This document shows, piece by piece, positions 4,431 to 51,519 of a DNA stretch of 64,000 bases. This DNA is from a virus (taxonomy: Duplodnaviria; Heunggongvirae; Uroviricota; Caudoviricetes): IMG/VR virus record IMGVR_UViG_2861084961_000001, one strand, 5' to 3'. Under the pieces are notes generated by a model that ran no database searches, had not been told where the DNA came from, and was given only the letters and a program-made list of their open reading frames with translations. The number at the start of each line of letters is the position of its first letter. Position 1 is the stretch's first letter. The translations under genes and the position numbers were made by a program.

Positions 4431-7400
4431 ATGAAGGCTCTGATGGTTCGAACTGACTTCTCTCTTGGGGAGTCGGCTCTAAAAGCAGAAAACGCGGTGA
4501 AGATTGCCAGAGAAGCTGGCTACACCGCTGTAATTTCGGCAGATAGCATGAATATTGCGAGTGTTATTCCACTACAACGTGCCGCTGGTGACGACATGGC
4601 GGTTATTTGTGGTGTGAAACTAAACATTGTTGATGATCCCACATACGAGCACCGGGCTAAACTTGCTAAAGAGTCTATGGGATGTATGGAATCATTAGAG
4701 CGTGGGCGGAACTACTCCTTTACCGCTCTAATTAAAAATGAGCAGGGATATCGAGACATCTGCGAACTAATGACGGCGGCCAACACACGAGAACAGTTCT
4801 ACTTTGTACCGCGTCTCTCGCTCGAACAGTTGGTTTCTACATATGCCAAAGGCAACATCATCCTGCTAACTTCCGACATCGGTAGCGTGTTCCAACGCAA
4901 CGATTTTGCAAAAATCATAAGCTCACTGATTACAGCGGGTGGAAAAGACAACTTCTATAGTGTGGTTTATCCGCACCCTACCCATTCTACGACCAGATTA
5001 ACGTCCGGGCGATGAAAGTCGCCAGCGCACTGAAAATAGAGCCAGTAGCGTTCTATCCCGCTTATTACGAATCGATCGACGATGCAGACATTAAAGACAT
5101 TGCGCACATGGTTACGAACAACATCAAAATCGACCAGCCGCATCGTCTGCGTATCCCCACCAGCGAGATAACGCCGTCAATTGTCGCCGCCATCTCCTTG
5201 AGGCGCTGAAAGCCTTCTCCGTTCGCATGGATGTGCCGGTAACAGCTGCAATGGCCTCAACAACGCAGGATACCATTATCGATGCCTGCACATGGCGCTG
5301 GCATGAATTGCCACCAGCACTGCCAAAGATGGCAGACGACGAGCCTGCAACTCTGATGAAACTGGCCGTTGCTGGGCTGCGTAAACGTCTTACCACAAAA
5401 GAGTTTGGCTACACACCACCGGCTTCTGAGAACAGGGTTTATGTTGAGCGACTTAAGTACGAAATGGATACGCTGACTCGCCTGGGATTCTGTGGTTACT
5501 TCCTGATGGTGCGCGATCTGATGAATCATAGTCGTGAAACTGGCATTCCCGTTGGGCCTGGTCGTGGTTCCTCTGCTGGCTCTTTGGTGGCATGGTGCAT
5601 AGGCATAACCAACGTCGACCCAATCCGTCACGGTCTTCTGTTTGAACGTTTCATCAACCCTGAGCGTCTCGACTTGCCGGATGCGGATTTGGACTTCAGC
5701 CAGGCACGTCGCCATGAAGTGATCGAGTATCTGAATGAACGCTACGGCGAAGATTACGTTGCGGGTATTCCGAACTTCACATATCTGGGCGCAGCCTCTG
5801 CACTACGTGACACCGCTCGTATTTATGGTGTGGAGTCCGCAGATATGGCGGTATCAAAGAACTGAAGAACGTCGAGGATGATAGCCTTCCATTGGAAGAA
5901 CTGCGCGAACAACTGGCAAGTCTCGACAAATACGCAACAAAATATCCTGATGCATTCAATGCAGCCTGCAAGTTACAAAGCCTTATGCGTGGCTTTGGTA
6001 GACATGCGGCAGGGATGATCGTAGCAGGTGTTCCTCTGACAGAACGTACACCGGTTGAACGACGTGGTGACGCGCGTTGTATCGCATTTGACAAGCGTTA
6101 CTGCGAGGCTATGGGCCTAATTAAGCTGGACGTGCTTGGCCTGGCAACTCTCGATTTGCTCGATAGTGCAAAACGCTACATAAAAGAGAACACAGGTGAA
6201 GATATCAATCTTGATGCCATTTCTCTTGAAGATCGCAAGGTGCTGGATGGTTTTGCTGCTGGGTACACTCAAGGTGTTTTCCAGCTTGAATCAGGCCCAA
6301 TGCGCAAGCTGCTTAAAGATTTAGGTGGTGGAATTGAGCCAATGAGCTTTAAAACGGTCGTCGCTACGACTGCGCTCTTCCGGCCGGGGCCAATTCAGTC
6401 AGGCATGTTGGATGACTATGTTTCTGTAGCCAAAGGCTTTATGAAGCCGGAATCATTACACCCCGTTCTTGATGAACTTACCGCAGAAACAAATGGCGTG
6501 ATTCTCTATCAGGAACAGACGATGAACGCGACTCGATTGCTTGCTGGCTTCACAATGGCTGAAGCTGACGGTGTTCGTAAAGCGATCGGCAAAAAGGACA
6601 TGGAAAAATGAAGAGCATGGGCGAGAAGTTCATCGTTCAGGCTCAAGCTGGCTGGATAGACGTTGAGCTGGAAGATGGCACTACACAGCGCATTCACCGT
6701 GCGGAACATTTTAAATGCGAAGACGGAACTCTGAAAACTGTCGAAGAGGCACTTGAGTACGGCGCAAAACTACCTATAAACGCAGTACGCGTTACAGCGT
6801 CACATCCAGGGCTATCAGAGATGAAAGCGAAGGAGATCTGGACCGCATTCGAAAAAAATGGAGCCTACCAGTTCAACAAATCACACTCTGTTGCTTACTC
6901 CTTAATCAGTTATCAATCTATGTGGTTGAAAACTCATTATCCCGCAGAGTTTTCGCTGCTGCTCTCACTATTCTTGGCGAAGATAAACACCAGGGGCTGG
7001 TTAAAGATGCGCTGACCTATGGTATTCGCGTATTGCCACCAGACGTTAACGTGTCATCTAACCGAATCGAGATCCGCACGCTTGAAGATGGCAGCCAGGT
7101 GCTGTATGCGCCCTTCTCTGCTGTGAAGGGGTGTTCTGAGAATGGCTGCCAGGCCATCATGAGAGCGCGAGAAAGGGTTGGCGGCAAATTCGAGTCACTG
7201 GCGCAATTCGAAGAAGCTGTCGAGAAACGTGCCTGTAATAGTCGAGTGCGCGAATCACTGCAAAAAGTAGGTGCGTTTGCGTCCATAGAGCCAGGTAGTC
7301 TGCCAGCAACTGATCCAGAGCGTCTCCGCGACCAAGCAGAATTGATGGGAAACCTTGTCATAGATGCAGTTAAAGCCTCACGTCCGTTTGAGATGAACCC

Positions 7401-7506
7401 CAAACGTTCGGCTGAGATTAACGTGCTCATGACACGGATGGCGGCTGAAATGGGCTTAGGTGATGAACTAATCCGCCCAGCATTGGTATTAAGCCGAAAA
7501 TCATGA
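4431..7506 (+). CDS. dnaE: DNA polymerase III alpha (DnaE-like), fragmented into six ORF pieces by frameshifts
   Basis: PHP domain at N-terminus; motifs GIPVGPGRGSSAGSLVAWCIGIT, GHAAGMIV, KLDVLGL, GVFQLES, ALFRPGP, ILYQEQ, YQFNKSHSVAYSLISYQSMWLKTHYPAEF in successive ORFs 4431..5015, 5012..5209, 5227..5865, 5892..6611, 6608..7015, 6922..7506. Confidence 0.75.
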
Positions 7507-20507: not shown

Positions 20508-21409
20508 ATGACTTTGCCATACGGCGTCATTTCTGACTGCCACTACCACAAATGGGATGCGTTCTCCACGACGAACGCTGAGGGGCTTAACTCCAGACTT
20601 GAAATACAGTTGGAAGCAACGAAAGAAGCAGCCATCGCCATGAAGAAGGCCGGTTGTAAGTACATGTTGGTTGCCGGTGATACATTTCACGTCCGAGGAA
20701 CTGTGTCCCCTTCTGTTTTGCATTACGTAACTGAAACGTACAAGTGGATTATCAACGAGCTTGATCTGACAGTAGTAATGCTGGCCGGTAATCACGATCT
20801 TGAAACCAACGATTCAGTATATAGCGCCAACGCAGCAGCATCGCTGAGTTCTATCGGCGTGGTAATCGTATGTGGCAAGCGCCCACACTCAATAAAAATT
20901 GGTGATGTCACTGTCCACCTGATTAGCTGGCGTAACAATCATGCGGAGCTTATCAGCGATCTGAAAGCATTACGTAAGAGCGTAGAAGGTGATAATCATG
21001 ACGTTGTTATCCATACATCCATTAACAAAGCCATTCCAACAATGCCTGACGTCGGTATCGATGCGCAGGAGTTAAAGGATATCGGCTTTCGTCTCGTGCT
21101 TAGTGGGCATTACCACAACCACAAAGAGGTCATTCCTGGAGTTATCAGTGTCGGTGCACTGACCATCAAAATTGGGGAGATGTTGGATCTCTGGCTGGTT
21201 ACATGATCGTAAACCCGGACGGCAGTTTCAGTCACTACGAAACCAGTGCGCCTAAATTCATTAACCTGGAAGATTATGTTGCCGATGATCAAATTCGCGG
21301 CAACTACGTGCGTTTCCGCGCCGTAATGAGAACGATGAAGAAGGCATTAAGTACCAGAACATCCTCAAAACAATGGGTGCAAAGGTGTTGTGTGCAACTT
21401 CATCCGTAA
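20508..21409 (+). CDS. SbcD/Mre11-like nuclease (calcineurin-like phosphoesterase), frameshift near 21195
   Basis: SDCHYH, AGDTFH, LAGNHD, SGHYHNH; CAAAGGAAAAACACATG start context. Confidence 0.65.
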
Positions 21410-21823
21410 GTCATCAATGATGGAAGGGACAGCAAGCACAACGGAAACCAGCAAAATCGATAGCCTGGGAGAGTCGGTATCTGCTTATTGCAAGATTGTC
21501 CACGATACTGACGGCGGATTTGATCTGAGCAAGTTGGATATTTTGTGTCAGGAAATCCTCACCGAAGCGGAGAGTTCGGAGGCTGTGTGAGGCAAAGTCG
21601 TTATGGGAGCTTTCGAGACTTTGCCATCACGATGAAAAGACTTGAACGAGGCCAGACGGTGATGTTTCACAAGCCCTACCCGCCACAAGGAAATCCCGTA
21701 GCGTTTTATCTTGGAAGGTTAACCAGAAAAGGCGTATTGAGGCGCAGATCCTTCCCGGCGCATACGGAGTTCAGATTGAAAGAAGGTCAAAAGCTAACAC
21801 ACGGTATCAAAGGTGTTATATGA
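21390..21823 (+). CDS. uncertain ORF fragments, possibly the C-terminal part of the SbcD-like protein
   Basis: ORFs 21390..21590 and 21545..21823 in alternating frames. Confidence 0.2.
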
Positions 21824-23733
21824 AGTTTTTAAAACTCCAGGTTGAGAATTTTATGGCTATCGCCAGCGCGGAGGTCGAGTTAGATCAGCGTGGTTTAGTG
21901 CTAATTCAGGGCATTAATAGTGATGATAGTTCCGCATCAAGTAATGGCTCTGGAAAGTCAACTCTAATGAATAGCCTGATGTGGTGTCTTTATGGCGAAA
22001 CAGCTCATGGTGTGAAGGGTGACGATGTGTTGTCTACCGACCATGAAAAGAACTGTCGTGTTGCAGTAACCATCGAGGATGAAGGCAAGAGATATGCGAT
22101 CATTCGTCACCGTAACACAAAGAGTTCAAAAATCGTCTTATCGTTCGTGGTGAAGATGGCGATATGACGAAAGGCAAAGATGCGCTGACGCAGGAGTTCG
22201 TCGAGCGTCTGATCGGTGCATCTAAAGAGGTTTTCATGGCTTCCATCTATGCGAGCCAAGAAGCTATGCCAGATCTACCTGGAATGTCCGACAAAAACCT
22301 CAAAACCATCGTAGAAGAAGCCGCTGGCGTTGACAGACTGACACGCGCCTACGCTATTGCTCGTGAACGAGCTAACGCAGCTGCCGCACGCATGGACGTG
22401 GTTAAAACCAAATTGGAGTCGACAATCTCGACCATTGAGGCAACACAGTCAGAAATTGAGTCCGCGAAAGCCTCCTCTGAATCATGGGAACAAGAGCGTT
22501 CTAAACGTTATGACGATGCCCTAGCTGGGCTGGCAAGTGCCGAAGTTGAGTTAACGGAAGTTGAACTTGAGATCCGCACTCTTCCCGAACAGATCCGTGA
22601 TACCGAGAAGGCAATCGAAAGTGAGCGCAAAAAGTTAGCCTCAAAAGAAGAACATGATGCCAAGTTGCTCAAAGTGCGTGGTGCGATAACTGATATTCGG
22701 GCAAGCATCAAAGCTACAGAAATAGTCAGGCTGATGCAATGAGCCGCGCGCGCAATTTTAAGACCAAAGCAGAAGAGGTTGGTACTAAAGTAGGATCACC
22801 ATGCCCTACTTGTGGCAAAGCCTACTGCGAAGAAGATCTATCAACGGTGAAGGAGAATTTCATTGAACAAGCACGTCAGGAAATTGGTCAGGCGAAGACA
22901 CTTGCAGAGGCAATGGCTAAACACAAAACGAATCTTGAGAAGGCGTTAAGCATTGAGTCTGCCCTTGTTAAAACGACACCTGATGTAACGGCTATCATTG
23001 CCCGGATTGAAGAGCTTACTAAACAACTTTCATCTTTGCGTCATCGTGAGAAGGAGGTTGTTGCTATTGAGTCTCTTGTGACTCGTGCTCGTACTGAGGT
23101 CGATCGTATATCAAAAGAGATTAATCCGTTTATTGCTCTTATCGCCAGACACGAAGATAACCTGGTATCCAGTAAGTCTACCTTCAAGTCCTTAAAAGAT
23201 GAGTTGAAGGCTATTCAGGAACAAACGTTGCTATTGGAAAAAGCTCGTCAGGTCTACTCTCCTGCCGGGGTGCGTTCTCATATTTTGACGTCTGTTACGC
23301 CTTTCCTGAATACACGCACTGCCGAGTATCTCAATACGTTGTCTGACGGGAATATTACTGCTGAGTGGTCGACGATGGATGTCACTAAAAAGGTGAGTAT
23401 CGCGACAAATTCAACATTAGTGTGCAGAAGAAAGGTTCAAGTAAGTCGTTCCAAACCCTCTCTGGTGGTGAGAAGCGGAAGGTTCGCATTGCGTGTTCTT
23501 TGGCATTGCAGGATCTGGTTAGTAACCGGGCGAGTAAAAACATCGATTTGTTTATCGGCGACGAAATTGACGATGCACTCGATACAGCCGGTCTTGAACG
23601 CCTCATGGGTATTCTGGAGTCCAAAGCTCGCGAGCGAGGTACTGTGCTGATTATCTCCCATAAAGAGATGAAGTCATGGTTCCGGGAAACTATTACGCTG
23701 GAAGTTAAAGAGGGGCGCAGCTATGTCGTTTAA
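21820..23733 (+). CDS. SbcC/Rad50-like ATPase, split in four ORF pieces
   Basis: N-terminal FLKLQVENFMAI...GINSDDSSASSNGSGKSTLMNSLMWCLYGE, coiled-coil middle, C-terminal FQTLSGGEKRKVRIACSLAL...LFIGDEIDDALD; ORFs 21820..22167, 22164..22742, 22739..23650, 23422..23733. Confidence 0.65.
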
Positions 23734-24465
23734 ATTAAGCCGCACGCAGTTTTTGCAGGTATTTGCAGTGATGCAGTCGATAAAACTGATCAATGGGCAT
23801 ACTTCCAATGGTGCGGCTCCACGTATTCTGTGGGGCAGCAACAATATTGACGGAGTACAATTCGCCGCGTTGCTTGGTCTAATATCCGAGACACCATTGA
23901 TGCAAAGTTTGAAATCACTACCACCTGGATGTATTGCGCCGATCCTGATTAATCCTTTTGTTGAGGGGGATATCTTCCCAACGTCGGGCCTGGGTTTATT
24001 GCATCCCATGAAACTGAAGATCTTAACATTAATAGCGAAGGGTTCTTTGGGGGAATGGGTGCGCATCACTGTATGGCTTTCACGAACCTTATTCGACTTG
24101 CCAATAAGCGGGTGGATAGTTTGGCATCTCCAGGTGATGCTTTTACTGATTTCCTTATCCAAAGGAGGGATAAAAAGTACAGTGCGGACAAACTACAGTT
24201 TATTGGTAAGTATGGAGAAATGGTAGAAATCGAACTTCAGCTCCCTCATGTTTTAGCAAACGATAGTGCAGACAGTCGGAGGCTGTTGGGCATCATGCGT
24301 CATTTCATAGCAAGTGGCGTTAAACATGCCGTAGATAAACGTGTCACGCAGGAAAATGAGTATTCAGACTTTGCAAACTATCCCCAACCAACGTTGCAAA
24401 CGGCAATAATAGCCAATTCGTTGGAGGCGAGATTATTGGAAAACCCTATATGGGGAACATGGTAA
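23723..24465 (+). CDS. hypothetical protein (ORFs 23723..24226 and 24055..24465, likely one gene)
   Basis: ORF track; overlapping frames. Confidence 0.3.
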
Positions 24466-24511
24466 GGAGACTATATGAGTAAAAAATCAGCGTAGTTGGT
24501 GTTGATCCTCA

Positions 24512-25041
24512 ATGAGTAACTTTGGGCTTGCTGTGGGCACTTTAGACCTTGAAACGGACGAACTTGAGATTCACGGCCTTACTCTTGTTGAGACTAAAGC
24601 GGGGAGTAACAAAAAGACAGTTCGTGTGAACAGCGACGATCTGCGCCGTGCCAGTGAAATATGGCGTGTTGCGAAGCCAATCATTGATAAGGCAAATATG
24701 GTTTTTTGTGAGCTACCGGTTGGGAGCCAAACTCTCGTTCGCAGACGTCTTACGGAATTTGTATCGGTGTACTTGCGTGTGTGGATAAGCCATTGATCCA
24801 GGTTACTCCAAACGAAATTAAGCATTTTGTCGGCAATAAACTTACTACATCGAAAGAAGAGATTATCCAGTGGGCTACGAAAAAACACCCTAAAGCACCG
24901 TGGCTGCGTCGTAAGCAATCTGGACAGGATGTTCTCGTGAACAAAAACGAACATTTGGCTGATGCGGTGGCTGCCATCCATACCGGTATGCAAACGGATC
25001 AGTTCCGCCAGGTGCGCGATGTTCTTAAGTCTCTCATTTGA
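24512..25041 (+). CDS. RuvC-like Holliday junction resolvase (frameshift near 24785)
   Basis: N-terminal LAVGTLDLETDE and C-terminal NEHLADAVAAIHTG resemble RuvC blocks; ORFs 24512..24796 and 24781..25041. Confidence 0.4.
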
Positions 25042-29850: not shown

Positions 29851-30898
29851 ATGCAAAAGTTATTGAGACGGTGCTTAAAGCGGCGTGCAGGCTGATGATC
29901 GCACAGGCACTGGTACTTTAAGCACCTGCTACGTTCCCTCTTACTACATGCTTACTGGTGGGACTGTGCCGCTTATTTCTGGAAAGGCGGTAAATCTTAA
30001 GCCACTACTTGTCGAACTTGAGTGGTATCTGAAAGGCACGGGTAACATCCAATTTCTCAAGGATAACGGCGTGAAGATTTGGGACGCATGGGCCGATGAG
30101 AATGGTGATTTGGGGCCGGTTTACGGCAAGCAGTGGCGTCGCTGGGAAGATACCCGCATCGTGAGCCATAGTGAGTATCTGAGCAAGATCGATACGTTCC
30201 GTGAACGCGGGTACAAAGTCGAGGGATACCTGGGTATCAGTGAAGATCGCGTAGTGCTGTCCCGTGAAATCGATCAGCTACAGCGTATTGTCGATACACT
30301 GCGCACGAACCCTACCGATCGTCGCATCATGCTTAACGCATGGAACGTAGGCGAGCTTGAGGATATGAAACTGCCACCTTGCCACTTTGTCTTCTCTTTG
30401 TGGAGTCGTGAGCTTGATTTTGAAACCCGTTTAACGATGGCAACTGACATTGGTCTTCAACACAGTCGCCTCGGTTACGAGTCTATCTATACCAAGATGC
30501 TATACGATCTGGAGATGGTCGGCAGTGTTACTGAAACTGAACTGGATGAACTTGGAATCCCCAAACGCATCCTCAACTCCTGCCTCGTACAGCGTAGCGT
30601 AGACACTTTTGTTGGTATGCCATTCAATATTGCTGGTTATGGCATTCTCACTCATTTTCTCGCGAAGATTACGGGTCACATGGCCGGTGCCTTTGTGCAT
30701 TTTGGCTTTGACGTGCATTTGTACAACAACCACATGGAAGGTGTGTGTGAGCTAATGAAACGACAGGCTCCAGAGCATTCAGATCCGGTCGTTATTTTCC
30801 CTCATGAATGGTCAGAGTTGGATGATTTCAAATGGGACGAGGTTCTAATTCTTGGCTATGCCCCTCTACCGTGGATCAAGGTTCCAGTGGCGGTGTGA
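29851..30898 (+). CDS. thyA: thymidylate synthase (frameshift in first about 12 codons)
   Basis: DRTGTGTLS, DENGDLGPVYGKQWRRW, PPCHFVFSLW, QRSVDTFVGMPFNIAGYGILTH; ATG 29851 reads 14 codons then stops, GTG-started ORF 29885..30898 carries the rest. Confidence 0.85.
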
Positions 30899-36956: not shown

Positions 36957-37464
36957 ATGGCACGTCAAACCTATTTCACTTCTGCAACTAAACGTCCTCG
37001 TTCTTTACGTCAAATTTTGGCCGAATTATTTAGCGGTCGTGTTATGTCACGTCTTGATGAACTAGAGACTACCGTTCGGTTGCTGAATGAACGTTTAGAT
37101 AATCAAGCGTCAGTTGTTGCGAACGTGGGGGCGATTGTTGCCTCTGGTTCTTCACGCGAAGCGAAAAGTACACGGCCTTTAGTGAAGGAGAAAAACAACA
37201 AGGACAGTTCGAATGGAAAATTTTCAAAGAAAGAGGCTGAAACCAATGGCCTACGTTCTCATTATAGTTTCACTGGCGACGGTAGCCGTTCCAGCCGGCC
37301 AGAGCCTTTTGATGCCGGATTCATCCATCACCACACCTTCGTCGACGACAATTACCACCACTCCAGTGGAGCGTCCTGTCACTCTGGATGGGATGGCGGT
37401 GGATGCGATACCTCAAGTTCATCCAGTTACTCAGGATCATGCTGTGACTAAGGCGGTTGTATGA
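36957..37464 (+). CDS. hypothetical protein(s) with C-terminal transmembrane segment; frames 36957.. and 37213.. probably one gene
   Basis: ORF track; hydrophobic AYVLIIVSLATVAVPAG in second frame. Confidence 0.3.
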
Positions 37465-37649
37465 ACTGGTTTTCAAATCACTTTGGAAAAATTTGGCTGG
37501 CAATTCTTGCCCTCATGGCCGCCGGTTGGGTATCGAACATTATAAAACTTGTTTGCTCTGGCGATCTCCAGTTTCAGGCTGGCATGACCTTGGCTCGTGT
37601 AGTTGGGATTTTTGTTTTTCCAGTTGGTTCGGTACTTGGTTATTTCTGA
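37461..37649 (+). CDS. small two-helix membrane protein (62 aa)
   Basis: ORF track; hydrophobic segments. Confidence 0.4.
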   Translation: MNWFSNHFGKIWLAILALMAAGWVSNIIKLVCSGDLQFQAGMTLARVVGIFVFPVGSVLGYF

Positions 37650-37704: not shown

Positions 37705-37719
37705 AAAACAACTTGTTTT
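37705..37719. promoter_or_regulatory. motif B palindrome (AAAACAA-C-TTGTTTT)
   Basis: Upstream of TerB-like gene. Confidence 0.45.
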
Positions 37720-37742
37720 GACAAATAATAAAAGGAAAACAC

Positions 37743-38167
37743 ATGTTAGGTTTCTTCAAAAAGAAAACTCGTAAAGCTGTTATCGAAGTCAAAAAATGGA
37801 GAACCGTGATGCGGTTGAGGCCACCGTGTGGGGCGCGTACATGATCTCCTATGCCGACGGCACATGTGACGCAAAAGAAATTGCCATTCTTGAGAAGACA
37901 ATTGCAGCTCTGCCTGCGTTTTCTCCGTTTGCTGGTGAAATTGCCCAAATGAGCGCCAATATCCGTGCTCGTTACGAAGCGTCCCCTCGTTCTGCTAATG
38001 CACAGGCTATTCGTGAGCTGTCTGATATTGCGGGTACTCCAGAGGCGGTCGATGTTCTGTGTCTGTGCCTTGATATTGCCGATCAGGACGGCATTGGTGA
38101 ACAAGAAGAGCAGGCACTGAAAAAGATCGCCCAGGCGCTTCAGTTGTCACTGGATGCTTATCTCTAA
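37743..38167 (+). CDS. TerB-like domain protein (frameshift at an A6 run near 37790)
   Basis: TerB-like helices with acidic motifs (DGTCDAKEIAILEKTIAAL, LCLCLDIADQDGIGEQEEQALKKIAQAL); ATG 37743 behind AAAAGGAAAACACATG is out of frame with ORF 37796..38167. Confidence 0.45.
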
Positions 38168-38328
38168 TGCTTGAGAGATTCCGGCTTGTGATCGTCATTG
38201 CTCTTCTGGTGATGGCGGTGTTGGTGGATTTACGGGAAAGATGATGTCTGTCATTTCTGATGGCGTCCTCATTGGTTTGGCGATCTACTTCGCTTATCCG
38301 TTAGTTCGTAAAGCAAAGTGTTAATGAC

Positions 38329-38352
38329 AAGGGCCAAATGGCCCTTGTGTTT
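38329..38352 (+). terminator. rho-independent terminator GGGCCA-AA-TGGCCC plus T-rich tail
   Basis: Hairpin after two small hydrophobic ORFs. Confidence 0.5.
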
Positions 38353-38431
38353 CGTTGACCGAAATAGAGAGTTTGCACCTTTACGTTTAGCTTGCTCCCC
38401 TTTTATGCCACATCACAATAAAGCCAATAAG

Positions 38432-38445
38432 AAAACAACTTGTTT
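38432..38445. promoter_or_regulatory. motif B palindrome (AAAACAA-C-TTGTTT)
   Basis: Upstream of 38464 gene. Confidence 0.45.
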
Positions 38446-38463
38446 AAGCATTAGGAAAAACAC

Positions 38464-39030
38464 ATGTGCAAGAAATGCAAAGCGATAGCTGATGAACAAA
38501 ACGCCTTATTCGAAGAAATGGATGCTAATGAACTGGTCAAAATGTTAGCCATTCTTCGAGGAATAGAAGACGTTTCCATATTTGAGAGAGTGGTTACAGC
38601 ACTTAATTTTGAGTCCACCTTTGAAGAGCCAACTCAGGTTGTAGCTTTAGCACATCATTTCGGTGTTCATTATCTTGCTGAAAAAGAGAGAGCTGATAAG
38701 TTGCAAGCGACTTTGGATATGGTGAGCGAGACTCAAGGAACTCATGACGGTAACAAAAGTGAGACGATTATTGCCAGCAAAGATCGTGAAATTGCCGGGC
38801 TTAAATCCTCTCTAACGATGTTGATGTCTGCAATTAACCTTATGTCTTCTAAAGCAGGTTATAAAATGCCATCACTAAACAGCGACGATCCGATGGCCGT
38901 TCGCCAGCTTTTAGGTGCAATGGCCGACCAGCTCGACGACACAAAGAGTCGCCTTGAAGACATGATGCGGGAGCTCACGCATCGCCATGACTTGAATAAG
39001 CAGCCACACAAAACGCAATACGCACTCTAA
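38464..39030 (+). CDS. hypothetical protein (188 aa)
   Basis: ORF track; AGGAAAAACACATG context. Confidence 0.45.
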   Translation: MCKKCKAIADEQNALFEEMDANELVKMLAILRGIEDVSIFERVVTALNFESTFEEPTQVVALAHHFGVHYLAEKERADKLQATLDMVSETQGTHDGNKSETIIASKDREIAGLKSSLTMLMSAINLMSSKAGYKMPSLNSDDPMAVRQLLGAMADQLDDTKSRLEDMMRELTHRHDLNKQPHKTQYAL

Positions 39031-47469: not shown

Positions 47470-47763
47470 ATGTCTATTTTTAACCCAATGAACCTTCAAT
47501 ACCGCAACATCAGTGTCTTGCGAATTAAGATAGTGTGTATAGGTTATACATGCAAGTGCATAACTCTGTGGATAACTCAGGAAGGAAAAAGTAGCTTCCG
47601 CGCAATTTAGGCCAGACAAGGCTTTCGCAAAAATCAACGGAGAGAAAAAAATTTGTTAAAAATAACGTTTGTTGGAATTGTATATATTTATGCCTTTCAA
47701 TAGTTAGCATCTTATTAACATCTTTTTTAAGAGATAGAGTTCAAAAATATATAGCTTCAACAT

Positions 47764-48222: not shown

Positions 48223-48227
48223 TTTTA

Positions 48228-49328
48228 TCACACTGCGCGGAATGCGATTTCGCCAGGTATTACTTCACCTTGCCAATACATTTGGGCAGCAACGCGATCT
48301 GCGAGGTCACGATAAATAGCCGTAAATTCGCTATCTGGACGACTAATAACGGTTGGTGTTCCGTTATCCAGATCCTCACGAAGAGAGATATGAAGTGGCA
48401 TTTGGCCTAACAACTGCGTGTTGTATTTCTCGGCCAGTTTCTGTGCGCCACCGGTGCCAAAAATTGGCTCGTGATGACCGCAGTTACTGCAAATATGCAC
48501 ACTCATGTTTTCGACGATACCTAGTACCGGCACTTCGACTTTTTCGAACATCACAATGCCTTTCTTCGCATCGATCAGCGCGATGTCTTGCGGCGTAGTT
48601 ACCACAACCGCACCAGTTACAGGAATGTTCTGCGCCAGCGTCAATTGAATATCACCAGTGCCCGGCGGCATATCGAGAACGAGATAGTCCAGATCAGGCC
48701 ACAGTGTTTCCTGCAACATCTGCATCAGCGCCTTGCTGGCCATCGGTCCACGCCACACCATTGCATTGTCGTCGGTGACCAGATAACCAATAGAGTTGGT
48801 TGCCAGGCCATGAGACATGATAGGTGCCATGTGAGTACCGTCCGGTGAGGTTGGACGTTGGTTTTCCGCACCCAGCATGGTTGGAATTGATGGACCGTAG
48901 ATATCGGCATCCAAAATACCAACTTTCGCACCTTCAGCAGCCAACGCCAGTGCCAAGTTTACTGCTGTGGACGATTTGCCTACACCGCCCTTGCCTGAGC
49001 TGACGGCGATGATGTTCTTAACGCCATTAATGCCTGGTTGGTTTTTGACGCGCTTAAGCGTGGCAATGTTGTACGACAGCTTCCAGTCGATAGCCTTTGC
49101 GCCAGTGATACGGAGCAGATCACCACTACATTGCTCTTTCAGGTCTTCAAAAGGCTTATTCCACACGAAAGGCATGATTAGTTCGACATGCAGTGTGTCA
49201 TCCATCAACGCAACATGGTGTAACGCTTTAAGCGTAGTCAGGTTGTGCTTCAGGGTTGGGTGCTGAAAATTAGCCAGCGTACCGGCTACCATTGCTCTCA
49301 GGGCATCCGGCGATTTGGACTCGCTCAT
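48228..49328 (-). CDS. mrp: Mrp/ApbC Fe-S cluster carrier ATPase, intact, host-type
   Basis: 366 aa; deviant Walker A SSGKGGVGKSSTAVNLA, CxxC motif; near-identical to recalled E. coli Mrp. Confidence 0.9.
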   Translation of the reverse strand: MSESKSPDALRAMVAGTLANFQHPTLKHNLTTLKALHHVALMDDTLHVELIMPFVWNKPFEDLKEQCSGDLLRITGAKAIDWKLSYNIATLKRVKNQPGINGVKNIIAVSSGKGGVGKSSTAVNLALALAAEGAKVGILDADIYGPSIPTMLGAENQRPTSPDGTHMAPIMSHGLATNSIGYLVTDDNAMVWRGPMASKALMQMLQETLWPDLDYLVLDMPPGTGDIQLTLAQNIPVTGAVVVTTPQDIALIDAKKGIVMFEKVEVPVLGIVENMSVHICSNCGHHEPIFGTGGAQKLAEKYNTQLLGQMPLHISLREDLDNGTPTVISRPDSEFTAIYRDLADRVAAQMYWQGEVIPGEIAFRAV

Positions 49329-49485
49329 CCCGTCTCCTTTATTTTAATTTGCGCAATTGTCGCCTTGTAGTGTACTCCAGCTACGACATTTAATCATTTA
49401 TGAGAAATGCTGTTATCACATGGCAGACATAAGGCCATTTTGTTACTATCAAGCCCCTTTTCACTACAAAGAAGTAATGCCTACT

Positions 49486-51519
49486 ATGACCCAAGTCGCG
49501 AAGAAAATTCTGGTGACGTGCGCGCTGCCGTACGCTAACGGCTCAATCCACCTCGGCCATATGCTGGAGCACATCCAGGCTGATGTCTGGGTTCGTTACC
49601 AGCGAATGCGCGGCCACGAGGTTAATTTCATCTGTGCCGACGATGCCCACGGTACGCCGATCATGCTGAAAGCACAGCAGCTTGGTATCACACCGGAACA
49701 GATGATTGGCGAAATGAGCCAGGAACACCAGACTGATTTCGCAGGCTTTAACATCAGCTATGACAACTATCACTCGACGCACAGCGAAGAGAACCGCCAG
49801 CTGTCTGAGCTTATCTATACTCGCCTGAAAGAGAACGGTTTTATTAAAAACCGCACTATCTCTCAGTTGTACGACCCGGAAAAAGGCATGTTCCTGCCGG
49901 ATCGTTTTGTGAAAGGCACCTGTCCGAAATGTAAAGCGCCAGATCAATACGGCGATAACTGTGAAGTTTGCGGCGCGACCTACAGCCCGACTGAACTGAT
50001 TGAGCCGAAATCGGTAGTTTCTGGCGCTACGCCGGTAATGCGTGATTCTGAACACTTCTTCTTTGATCTGCCCTCTTTCAGCGAAATGTTGCAGGCATGG
50101 ACCCGCAGCGGTGCGTTGCAGGAGCAGGTGGCAAACAAAATGCAGGAGTGGTTTGAATCTGGTCTGCAACAGTGGGATATCTCCCGCGACGCACCTTACT
50201 TCGGTTTTGAAATTCCGAACGCGCCGGGTAAATATTTCTACGTCTGGCTGGACGCACCGATTGGCTACATGGGTTCCTTCAAGAATCTGTGCGACAAGCG
50301 CGGCGACACTACCAGCTTCGATGAATACTGGAAGAAAGACTCCACCGCCGAGCTGTACCACTTCATCGGTAAAGATATCGTTTACTTCCACAGCCTGTTC
50401 TGGCCTGCCATGCTGGAAGGCAGCAACTTCCGCAAGCCGACCAACCTGTTTGTTCACGGCTATGTGACGGTGAACGGCGCGAAGATGTCCAAGTCTCGCG
50501 GCACCTTTATTAAAGCCAGCACCTGGTTGAATCATTTTGACGCTGACAGCCTGCGTTACTACTACACCGCCAAACTGTCTTCGCGCATTGATGATATCGA
50601 TCTCAACCTGGAAGATTTCGTTCAGCGCGTGAATGCCGATATCGTGAACAAAGTGGTTAACCTGGCCTCCCGTAATGCGGGCTTTATCAACAAACGTTTT
50701 GACGGCGTGCTGGCAAGCGAACTGGCTGACCCGCAACTGTACAAAACCTTTACTGATGCCGCTGAAGTGATTGGCGAAGCATGGGAAAGCCGCGAATTTG
50801 GTAAAGCTATCCGTGAAATCATGGCATTGGCTGACCTGGCTAACCGCTATGTCGATGAACAGGCTCCGTGGGTGGTGGCGAAGCAGGAAGGACGCGATGC
50901 CGATCTGCAGGCGATTTGCTCTATGGGCATTAACCTGTTCCGCGTGCTGATGACTTACCTGAAACCGGTACTGCCGAAACTGACAGAACGTGCGGAAGCA
51001 TTCCTCAATACGGAACTGACCTGGGATGGCATCCAGCAACCGCTGCTGGGCCATAAAGTGAATCCGTTCAAAGCACTGTATAACCGTATCGACATGAAAC
51101 AGGTGGAAGCATTGGTGGAAGCGTCTAAAGAAGAAGTGAAAGCTACTGCCGCGCCAGTTACTGGCCCGCTGGCAGACGACCCGATTCAGGAAACCATCAC
51201 CTTTGACGACTTTGCCAAAGTTGACCTGCGCGTGGCGCTGATCGAAAACGCAGAGTTTGTTGAAGGTTCTGACAAACTGCTGCGCCTGACGCTGGATCTC
51301 GGCGGTGAAAAACGTAATGTCTTCTCAGGCATCCGTTCCGCTTATCCAGACCCACAGGCACTGATTGGCCGTCACACCATTATGGTGGCTAACCTGGCTC
51401 CGCGTAAAATGCGTTTCGGTATCTCCGAAGGCATGGTGATGGCTGCTGGCCCCGGCGGGAAAGACATCTTCCTGTTAAGCCCGGATGCTGGTGCTAAACC
51501 TGGCCACCAGGTTAAGTAA
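49486..51519 (+). CDS. metG: methionyl-tRNA synthetase, intact, host-type
   Basis: [29 protein letters not shown] (HIGH-type), KMSKS, C-terminal tRNA-binding domain; start at ATG 49486 inside track ORF 49357..51519. Confidence 0.95.

Follow-up and report, generated by a model that had tools for sequence, protein, structure and literature searches.

A P1-type tciA-tciB cassette in an Escherichia coli phage-plasmid sequence, with a tciB most likely split by a base-calling or assembly error and a probable poly-A allele of tciA

TerB systems, the tci genes of P1 and the locus under study

TerB systems have been linked to resistance against tellurite, pore-forming colicins and phages, and in ter operons TerB has TerC as its partner. 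The TerB protein of the terZABCDEF operon (Pfam PF05099; Klebsiella structure 2JXU) belongs to the same domain family as TciA, the product of the first of a small group of phage genes. In phages P1 and P7, tciA and tciB are joined by a third small gene, tciC, and in P1 the tci genes lie between tRNA genes and downstream of the C1-controlled ban promoter. P1 tciA, tciB and tciC are transcribed during P1vir infection (bioRxiv 2025.12.28.696737), and CRISPRi has indicated that they are non-essential and dispensable for plaque formation (PMC10695390). The names "tellurite/colicin resistance/inhibition of cell division" are based on homology only (PMC11652158, PMC3728262), and DUF3927, the family to which TciB belongs, was used solely as a label in the literature that we searched.

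We analyzed a window of 64,000 nucleotides from the Caudoviricetes record IMGVR_UViG_2861084961_000001. A sequence-only reading had described its region 37743-38325 as a gene for a TerB-like protein followed by two overlapping ORFs of 25-27 codons, each encoding a single hydrophobic helix, and by a terminator. Judged by its sequence matches, the window is an E. coli phage-plasmid of the SSU5/pSLy3 type, and the region is one copy of the P1-type phage tciA-tciB cassette. The nearest relatives of the region are Escherichia phage-plasmids or phages of ~108-110 kb (CMS-2020a, 99.2 % identity; Cyrano, 98.1 %; PhiR41_1), and SSU5-type elements from Klebsiella match it at 79 %. A further E. coli relative of ~110 kb, pG749_2, is the best plasmid match. 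The matching records comprise 415 plasmids and 210 complete-genome E. coli entries, nearly all of the latter being plasmids as well. In both searches (plasmid and E. coli), all of the 40 matches listed span 663 nt for our 661-nt query. Over these 661 nt pG749_2 is 99.7 % identical to the window, two extra bases in pG749_2 being the sole difference.

The cassette at this locus is already known, and both of its genes are annotated in hundreds of plasmid and phage records. The relatives annotate the first gene (426 nt) as a "P1 TciA-like," "tellurite/colicin resistance" or "TerB family" protein and the second (159 nt) as a "P1 TciB-like" or "DUF3927 family" protein; RNase H, hypothetical proteins, a DUF4942 protein and a methyltransferase are encoded nearby. 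The "tellurite/colicin resistance" and "DUF3927" pair of SSU5/pSLy3-type elements is the same locus, from which the window differs only by two frameshifts. As in P1, tciA is followed by a tciB that starts at the tciA stop codon, and both elements are phage-plasmids. Once repaired, TciB from the window is 38 % identical to P1 TciB, both proteins matching DUF3927 and phrog_1470. Unlike P1, the window has no tciC, so that tciB is followed by the terminator; its cassette appears to have its own promoter/operator; and both tciA and tciB are frameshifted. The ter operons differ in that the partner of TerB is the multi-pass TerC, whereas the putative partner of TciA is the two-helix TciB of 52 amino acids. 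The remaining genes of such operons (terZ, A, C, D, E and F) were not found near the locus, and we thus rejected membership in a ter operon.

A normal cassette of this kind would consist of a promoter with a palindromic operator, tciA, a tciB gene whose start overlaps the tciA stop, and a terminator. Its tciA gene is expected to encode a cytoplasmic TerB-domain protein of 141 amino acids with a basic N-terminal segment, and tciB a DUF3927 membrane protein of 52 amino acids. With high confidence, we interpret the region as a copy of this cassette in which tciB is most likely split by faulty base calling or assembly, and in which the altered poly-A run of tciA is a genuine allele of the lineage.

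Reading frames of tciA and tciB

The tciA gene starts with an ATG at position 37743 on the plus strand, 5 nt downstream of a Shine-Dalgarno sequence (AAGGAA, 37732-37737, plus strand) that we read from the sequence and that is conserved in relatives. Its first 18 codons (MLGFFKKKTRKAVIEVKK, 37743-37796, plus strand) correspond to positions 1-18 of the 141-amino acid protein of the relatives. In the window, the frame of this ATG runs to a stop at 37844, forming an ORF of only 33 codons. Alignment with three relatives places a -1 nt frameshift in a run of six adenines (A6) at 37791-37796 on the plus strand, which is A7 in the intact relatives. The rest of tciA, from Met-19 to the stop and including the entire TerB domain, is found at 37796-38167 (plus strand) as a 123-codon ORF in a frame other than that of the ATG at 37743. 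The window therefore does not contain the intact single frame of ~141 codons, as the frame shifts after codon 18 of tciA. The TerB frame would thus lose its first 18 codons.

The sequence-only reading had proposed a domain profile search as a check on its TerB assignment, and the assignment is borne out by this search. The window ORF 37796-38164 matches the Pfam TerB family PF05099 with 27.5 bits, above the gathering cut-off of 24.4. When the missing A is restored, the resulting 141-amino acid TciA scores 31.5 bits against the same cut-off, matches phrog_632 end to end (positions 1-143 of 143, E = 4.8e-63) and is 79 % identical to P1 TciA across all 141 residues. In addition, a profile of six TciA sequences matches the TerB structure 2JXU_A with an E-value of 1.6e-5, TciA residues 15-135 aligning with TerB residues 21-144. 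A TerB domain is thus present, but the gene described as TerB-like is not one ORF in the window, since tciA is interrupted by the A6 run.

Downstream, the ATG of tciB overlaps the tciA stop codon (TAATG, 38165-38169). The two short ORFs are found with exactly the translations that had been quoted, the first (25 amino acids) at 38167-38244 and the second (27 amino acids) at 38241-38324, both on the plus strand and overlapping by 4 nt (ATGA). Homology indicates, however, that these micro-ORFs are not separate genes but together make up one tciB gene, the first representing its N-terminal half and the second its C-terminal half. A run of three thymines (T3) at 38228-38230 on the plus strand, which is T4 in all relatives, marks a -1 nt deletion that splits tciB inside its Asp-21-Phe-22 motif, the most conserved one of the family. 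Codons 1-21 of the first micro-ORF are genuine TciB sequence with the first predicted transmembrane helix, and its tail (LRER, followed by the stop) is out of frame. The second micro-ORF represents codons 26-52 of the intact gene and contains residues of a predicted periplasmic loop, the second predicted transmembrane helix and a basic tail. Restoring one T joins the two into a protein of 52 amino acids, MLERFRLVIVIALLVMAVLVDFTGKMMSVISDGVLIGLAIYFAYPLVRKAKC. This repaired TciB matches Pfam DUF3927 (PF13064) over positions 3-49 of 53 with 46.6 bits (cut-off 25) and the "TciB-like" family phrog_1470 over positions 1-51 of 54 with an E-value of 1.4e-21. On its own, the second micro-ORF matches DUF3927 positions 25-49 of 53 with 26.3 bits, and the first one yielded no family match in the profile search.

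We next turn to the relatives, where tciB is a single ORF of 50-59 amino acids in all 108 related loci (33 distinct sequences). Arg-6, Asp-21-Phe-22, Ser-28, Asp-32-Gly-33 and Pro-45 are conserved, the Asp-21-Phe-22 pair in at least 90 % of the distinct sequences. DUF3927 genes are characterized by a single ORF of 50-59 codons whose product has two hydrophobic segments, a feature that is missing from the window and appears once the T is restored. An exact look-up in a collection of 15 billion proteins located the intact 52-amino acid TciB on at least 1000 contigs, and the exact 25- and 27-amino acid peptides are absent from this collection. Chance alone readily yields ORFs of 25-27 codons, the 6 kb around the site being overlapped by 104 ORFs of 20 amino acids or more, and it is thus only homology that gives the two micro-ORFs meaning. 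The micro-ORFs that had drawn attention stem from one missing base, and the finding as such is an ordinary one.

Origin of the two frameshifts

We compared the window with pG749_2, to which it is 97-99 % identical, and found 37 isolated 1-nt deletions and four isolated 1-nt insertions in the window, mostly in homopolymers. These indels fall into 19 coding sequences, including dnaE (the DNA polymerase III α subunit, six times), repB (the replication initiator), thyA (thymidylate synthase) and dfrA (dihydrofolate reductase). Two much closer sequences, L107 (99.93 % identity across 20,372 nt) and L114 (99.95 % across 11,244 nt), are near-identical and apparently independent assemblies; both have A6 in tciA and T4 in tciB. 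L107 differs from the window by seven indels, each of them a single homopolymer base lost from the window, at 29876, 31431, 32167, 33300, 34019, 38228 (the T-run of tciB) and 45992, and the affected genes are intact in L107. Overall, the window under-calls about one homopolymer base per 3 kb. The T3 string was found in none of the IMG/VR contigs and in none of the GTDB-representative contigs, while the T4 control string was recovered in 24 fetched loci. On these comparisons, the change from T4 to T3 in tciB is private to the window sequence. As it is private and fits the systematic under-calling of homopolymers, we attribute it most probably to faulty base calling or assembly, as one of about 40 such errors in the window. 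Other short or split ORFs reported from this window need to be checked against relatives first.

We had also considered sequencing errors as the source of both frameshifts, an explanation that we dropped because A6 is common to otherwise clean independent assemblies, including the two nearest relatives, and only T3 is private. The exact 34-nt A6 string of the window occurs in none of the IMG/VR contigs (the intact A7 control string was found in 20 fetched loci). In an exact-protein index, however, the 123-amino acid product starting at Met-19 is present on 23-36 contigs, compared with at least 1000 for the intact 141-amino acid TciA. We surveyed the DNA of ten contigs encoding this shorter product, which were found by searching for broken alleles. 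In all of them the first 18 codons of tciA are altered: A7 is shortened to A6 in five (L107, L114, L108, L109 and L111) and extended to A8 in one (L112), an upstream tract is reduced from A5 to A4 in two (L106 and L110), an AAA codon has become a TAA nonsense codon in L105, and L113 is rearranged. L108, L109 and L111 carry A6 on diverged backbones, and in several of the contigs the tciA lesion is the sole indel in 3.4 kb. In a neighbor-joining tree of the surrounding 2.8 kb, broken alleles are polyphyletic and interspersed with intact ones, which argues that they arose repeatedly. The 5' poly-A tracts of tciA are thus a natural mutational hotspot. Because A6 is shared by near-identical assemblies and recurs independently, the A7 to A6 change in the window is probably a real, N-terminally truncated allele of the plasmid lineage.

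A real A6 allele raises the possibility that the split of tciB is itself a recent mutation, tciB decaying as a true pseudogene after the inactivation of tciA. Relaxed selection on tciB could follow from a tciA lesion that is common to independent assemblies, and homopolymer slippage does occur in this cassette in nature. Yet T4 is intact in L107 and L114, which have the same A6 allele. Over the same 20 kb, the window has six other homopolymer deletions of its own, which would break thyA, dfrA and, among other genes, those for an AAA ATPase and an exonuclease; with six more in dnaE and one in repB elsewhere in the window, this pattern is not credible for a maintained replicon. The direction of the indels is also lopsided, deletions far outnumbering insertions. 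We thus regard a true tciB pseudogene as unlikely. That both breaks lie in homopolymers, and that A-runs can support low-level slippage, might alternatively point to a regulatory design in which programmed ribosomal frameshifting or transcriptional slippage at A6 and T3 restores full-length TciA and TciB. Programmed sites are, however, conserved in their shifted form, whereas here the in-frame A7/T4 form is the one present on at least 1000 contigs. Lesions of tciA of all kinds are confined to the 23-36 contigs mentioned above and T3 to none in the two collections scanned, and a run of three thymines is far too short for efficient slippage, with no stimulatory structure noted. With a two-frame layout that is not conserved and an in-frame version that is the norm, we rejected a programmed-frameshift gene, for which we see hardly any chance.

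The suggestion that the micro-ORFs encode separate single-helix proteins of 25 and 27 amino acids, toxin-like or regulatory and placed beside a TerB protein, likewise fares poorly against these data. Both ORFs have ATG starts, their ATGA overlap could permit termination-reinitiation, and a GGG is located 4 nt before the second ATG. None of the relatives examined shows the 25 + 27 layout, however; the two nearest ones carry the T that the window lacks, the look-up in the protein collection recovered neither peptide, and the first micro-ORF combines the lack of a family match of its own with four out-of-frame residues at its end. A consensus scan of both strands, which is weak evidence, revealed no promoter-like site inside 37800-38330 that could serve the micro-ORFs separately, and neither a stand-alone promoter nor an antisense RNA was detected at tciB in this way. 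The toxins of type I toxin-antitoxin systems resemble the micro-ORFs in being small hydrophobic membrane peptides. In contrast to such toxins, TciB is a conserved two-helix protein of 52 amino acids that is always paired with a TerB gene, the stop codon of which its own start codon overlaps. We thus rejected a type I toxin-like class, the layout being unconserved in relatives and the peptides missing from the collection, and consider independent micro-proteins very improbable. The assignment of the two ORFs to one tciB gene, split by a probable error, is retained below.

Regulation, spread and possible working of the pair

A terminator had been placed behind the micro-ORFs, and we indeed find a strong, G+C-rich hairpin there, just past the stop codon and trailed by a run rich in T. 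This intrinsic terminator (38327-38358, plus strand) closes the tciA-tciB unit; its hairpin at 38327-38348 has a 9-bp stem with six G-C pairs and a 4-nt loop, followed by the tail GTTTCGTT. The hairpin has a ΔG of -22 kcal/mol and a z-score of -5.68, none of 200 shuffled sequences folds as well, and it is conserved in relatives. At the other end of the unit, a perfect 15-bp palindrome, AAAACAAcTTGTTTT, resembling an operator, is located at 37705-37719, 24 nt upstream of the tciA ATG. The motif, which may also be written AAAACAAnTTGTTTT, has ~15 sites in the window: with up to two mismatches, 29 strand matches are found where 4.25 are expected, and none of 100 shuffles reaches 29. None of the sites falls inside a gene; they precede start codons by 10-35 nt, usually behind a conserved sequence, gCCtTTT ... 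TGnGATAAT ... CCAAtAAG, that resembles an extended -10 element. A separate copy at 38432-38446 belongs to the following gene, at 38464. E. coli and Klebsiella relatives of this backbone preserve the sites, with the one upstream of tciA in the same place, and the palindrome is absent from the P1 and lambdoid loci that carry tciAB. A σ70 scan upstream of tciA returned one weak promoter match. We infer that tciAB is here a self-contained unit of promoter/operator, two genes and terminator, the details of the promoter being conjectural. The cassette is presumably wired into a regulon of the host phage-plasmid that would be governed by a dimeric repressor.

The two genes travel together. In 79 of 80 IMG/VR loci with a DUF3927 gene, tciA is immediately upstream of it, the exception being cut by a contig end. 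The stop codon of tciA shares 1 or 4 nt with the start codon of tciB (TAATG or ATGA; TAATG in the window) in 105 of 108 related loci. Lambdoid phages have the pair between the Q antiterminator and the lysis genes, and it is also carried by virulent Schitoviridae (FSL SP-076) and by Pseudomonas phage phiK7B1. In the Erwinia jumbo phage ChrisDB, a small TciB-like ORF that stays below the DUF3927 threshold occupies the same position, as does an unannotated ORF of 73 amino acids with a hydrophobic N-terminus in Pseudomonas phage AF. In a Vibrio phage, a TerC-family membrane protein adjoins the TerB homologue. TciA and TciB thus form a very widespread pair, with N4-like phages among its carriers besides temperate phages and phage-plasmids, that is experimentally uncharacterized and represents a reasonable, if not urgent, target for functional work.

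What the pair may do can be considered only by homology and from its gene context. The overlap of the stop and start codons suggests that translation of tciA and tciB would be coupled. Besides its two hydrophobic segments, TciB has an N-terminus of net positive charge, a basic tail at the C-terminus (RKAKC) and a loop of acidic character (DFTGKMMSVISD), and this distribution of hydrophobicity and charge suggests a hairpin in the inner membrane with both termini inside. TciA has no hydrophobic segment and is thus predicted to be cytoplasmic; it might be held at the membrane by its conserved basic N-terminus (MLGFFKKKTRKAV...) and by TciB. TciB would then be a putative membrane partner of TciA, as TerC is for TerB in ter operons. 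Given the resistance phenotypes to which TerB systems have been linked, the pair may influence the state of the envelope while the cell is infected or induced. Its occurrence in strictly virulent phages and in lytic or late transcription units of P1 and lambdoid phages suggests that it most likely works at this stage rather than as a lysogenic-conversion trait. Neither TciA nor TciB has a match in PADLOC or NCBIfam, and with no match in PADLOC we rejected membership in a known anti-phage defence system.

The A5 and A7 tracts of tciA could be imagined to slip and so to switch on or off a membrane-associated TerB/DUF3927 module that temperate and virulent phages use in lytic growth. If so, the module might, for example, stabilize the envelope of the infected cell or counter a membrane-targeting defence or colicin-type attack. 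We think such a switch improbable, since the broken alleles were searched for and account for just a few per cent of the copies; they are explained equally well by ascertainment bias and by a dispensable gene decaying in the ordinary way.

In the pSLy3 group, the tciA/tciB pair has been listed among the conserved genes that flank a site of antibiotic-resistance genes (PMC9600943). In one of the contigs that we surveyed, L105, a transposase and a β-lactamase gene are inserted directly 3' of tciB.

Single-base deletions in the window and lesions in tciA

When the window was compared with its relatives over its whole length, we found a systematic loss of single bases from homopolymer runs. Relative to pG749_2, the best plasmid match, there are 37 isolated deletions and four insertions, and all seven indels that separate the window from the near-identical contig L107 are one-base homopolymer deletions. 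One-base deletions frameshift at least 19 genes of the window that are intact in relatives. Such deletions are found, for example, at positions 1963, 3263, 4413 and 21164-24732, six times in dnaE (4984-7479), once in repB (19116), and further at 29876, 31431, 32167, 33300, 34019, 38228 (in the DUF3927 gene tciB), 45992, 57106 and 58414. Because this loss is systematic and disrupts genes intact in relatives, further short or split ORFs of the window are also suspect.

Codons 1-18 of the TerB-family gene tciA contain two poly-A tracts (37758-37762 and 37791-37796), and natural assemblies with a broken tciA (loci L105-L114) carry independent lesions in both of them. A contraction from A7 to A6 arose at least four times in this set, alongside A7 to A8 and A5 to A4 changes, an AAA to TAA nonsense codon and one rearrangement. 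The broken alleles are polyphyletic in a local tree, and every lesion spares the TerB ORF starting at Met19. The tracts may be a hotspot of mutation or may function as an on/off switch, in an allele set still subject to ascertainment bias.

Surroundings and variants of the tciA-tciB cassette

Closely upstream of the cassette lies a conserved 62-amino acid ORF (37461-37649, plus strand), which matches the phage protein family phrog_6006 (E 2e-25). By eye, it contains two hydrophobic stretches, and its product is probably a second small membrane protein near tciA-tciB. One relative (L105 10745-13138; GCA_021914345.1, JAETJB010000001.1) carries an insertion of two genes, for a DDE transposase and a beta-lactamase, directly 3' of tciB and ahead of the backbone gene that follows. 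The location agrees with a published description of pSLy3-type phage-plasmids, in which the site where resistance genes insert is flanked by the DUF3927 and tellurite-resistance genes (PMC9600943).

In several prophage-like IMG/VR contigs (L043-L050, L073), the ORF directly 5' of an intact tciB encodes only the C-terminal half of TciA, covering TciA profile positions 73-141. These half-length ORFs correspond to a separate family, phrog_9865, which matches TciA residues 68-141. They could represent a TciA variant that is truncated or uses a different start. In unrelated phages, tRNA genes adjoin the tciA-tciB pair (P1, P7, JLK-2012, Erwinia ChrisDB and Pseudomonas phiK7B1; L006, L092, L007, L089 and L090, respectively), and in Vibrio MS02 (L093) a TerC-family membrane protein gene adjoins the TerB homologue.

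A repeated palindrome and chromosomal-type genes on the backbone

The 15-bp palindrome AAAACAAnTTGTTTT occurs in about 15 copies in the window (29 strand matches versus 4.25 expected), centered at 788, 13194, 27498, 37712, 38439, 39153, 42061, 51610, 51661, 53100, 54295, 54778, 55681 and 56445, with a weak site at 47651. All sites are intergenic, with a start codon 10-35 nt downstream, and are usually preceded by a conserved gCCtTTT...TGnGATAAT...CCAAtAAG element resembling an extended -10 promoter; one such promoter-like element is flanked by two copies (51610/51661). The sites are kept in SSU5-type relatives from Escherichia coli and Klebsiella. Together, they look like the operators of a regulon on the phage-plasmid.

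The backbone also carries copies of two normally chromosomal genes, apbC/mrp and the methionyl-tRNA synthetase gene metG. They are adjacent and divergent, at about 48227-49327 and 49485-51518, positions transferred from the pG749_2 annotation (L004 12796-16087), and are also found in relatives L106, L109 and L110.
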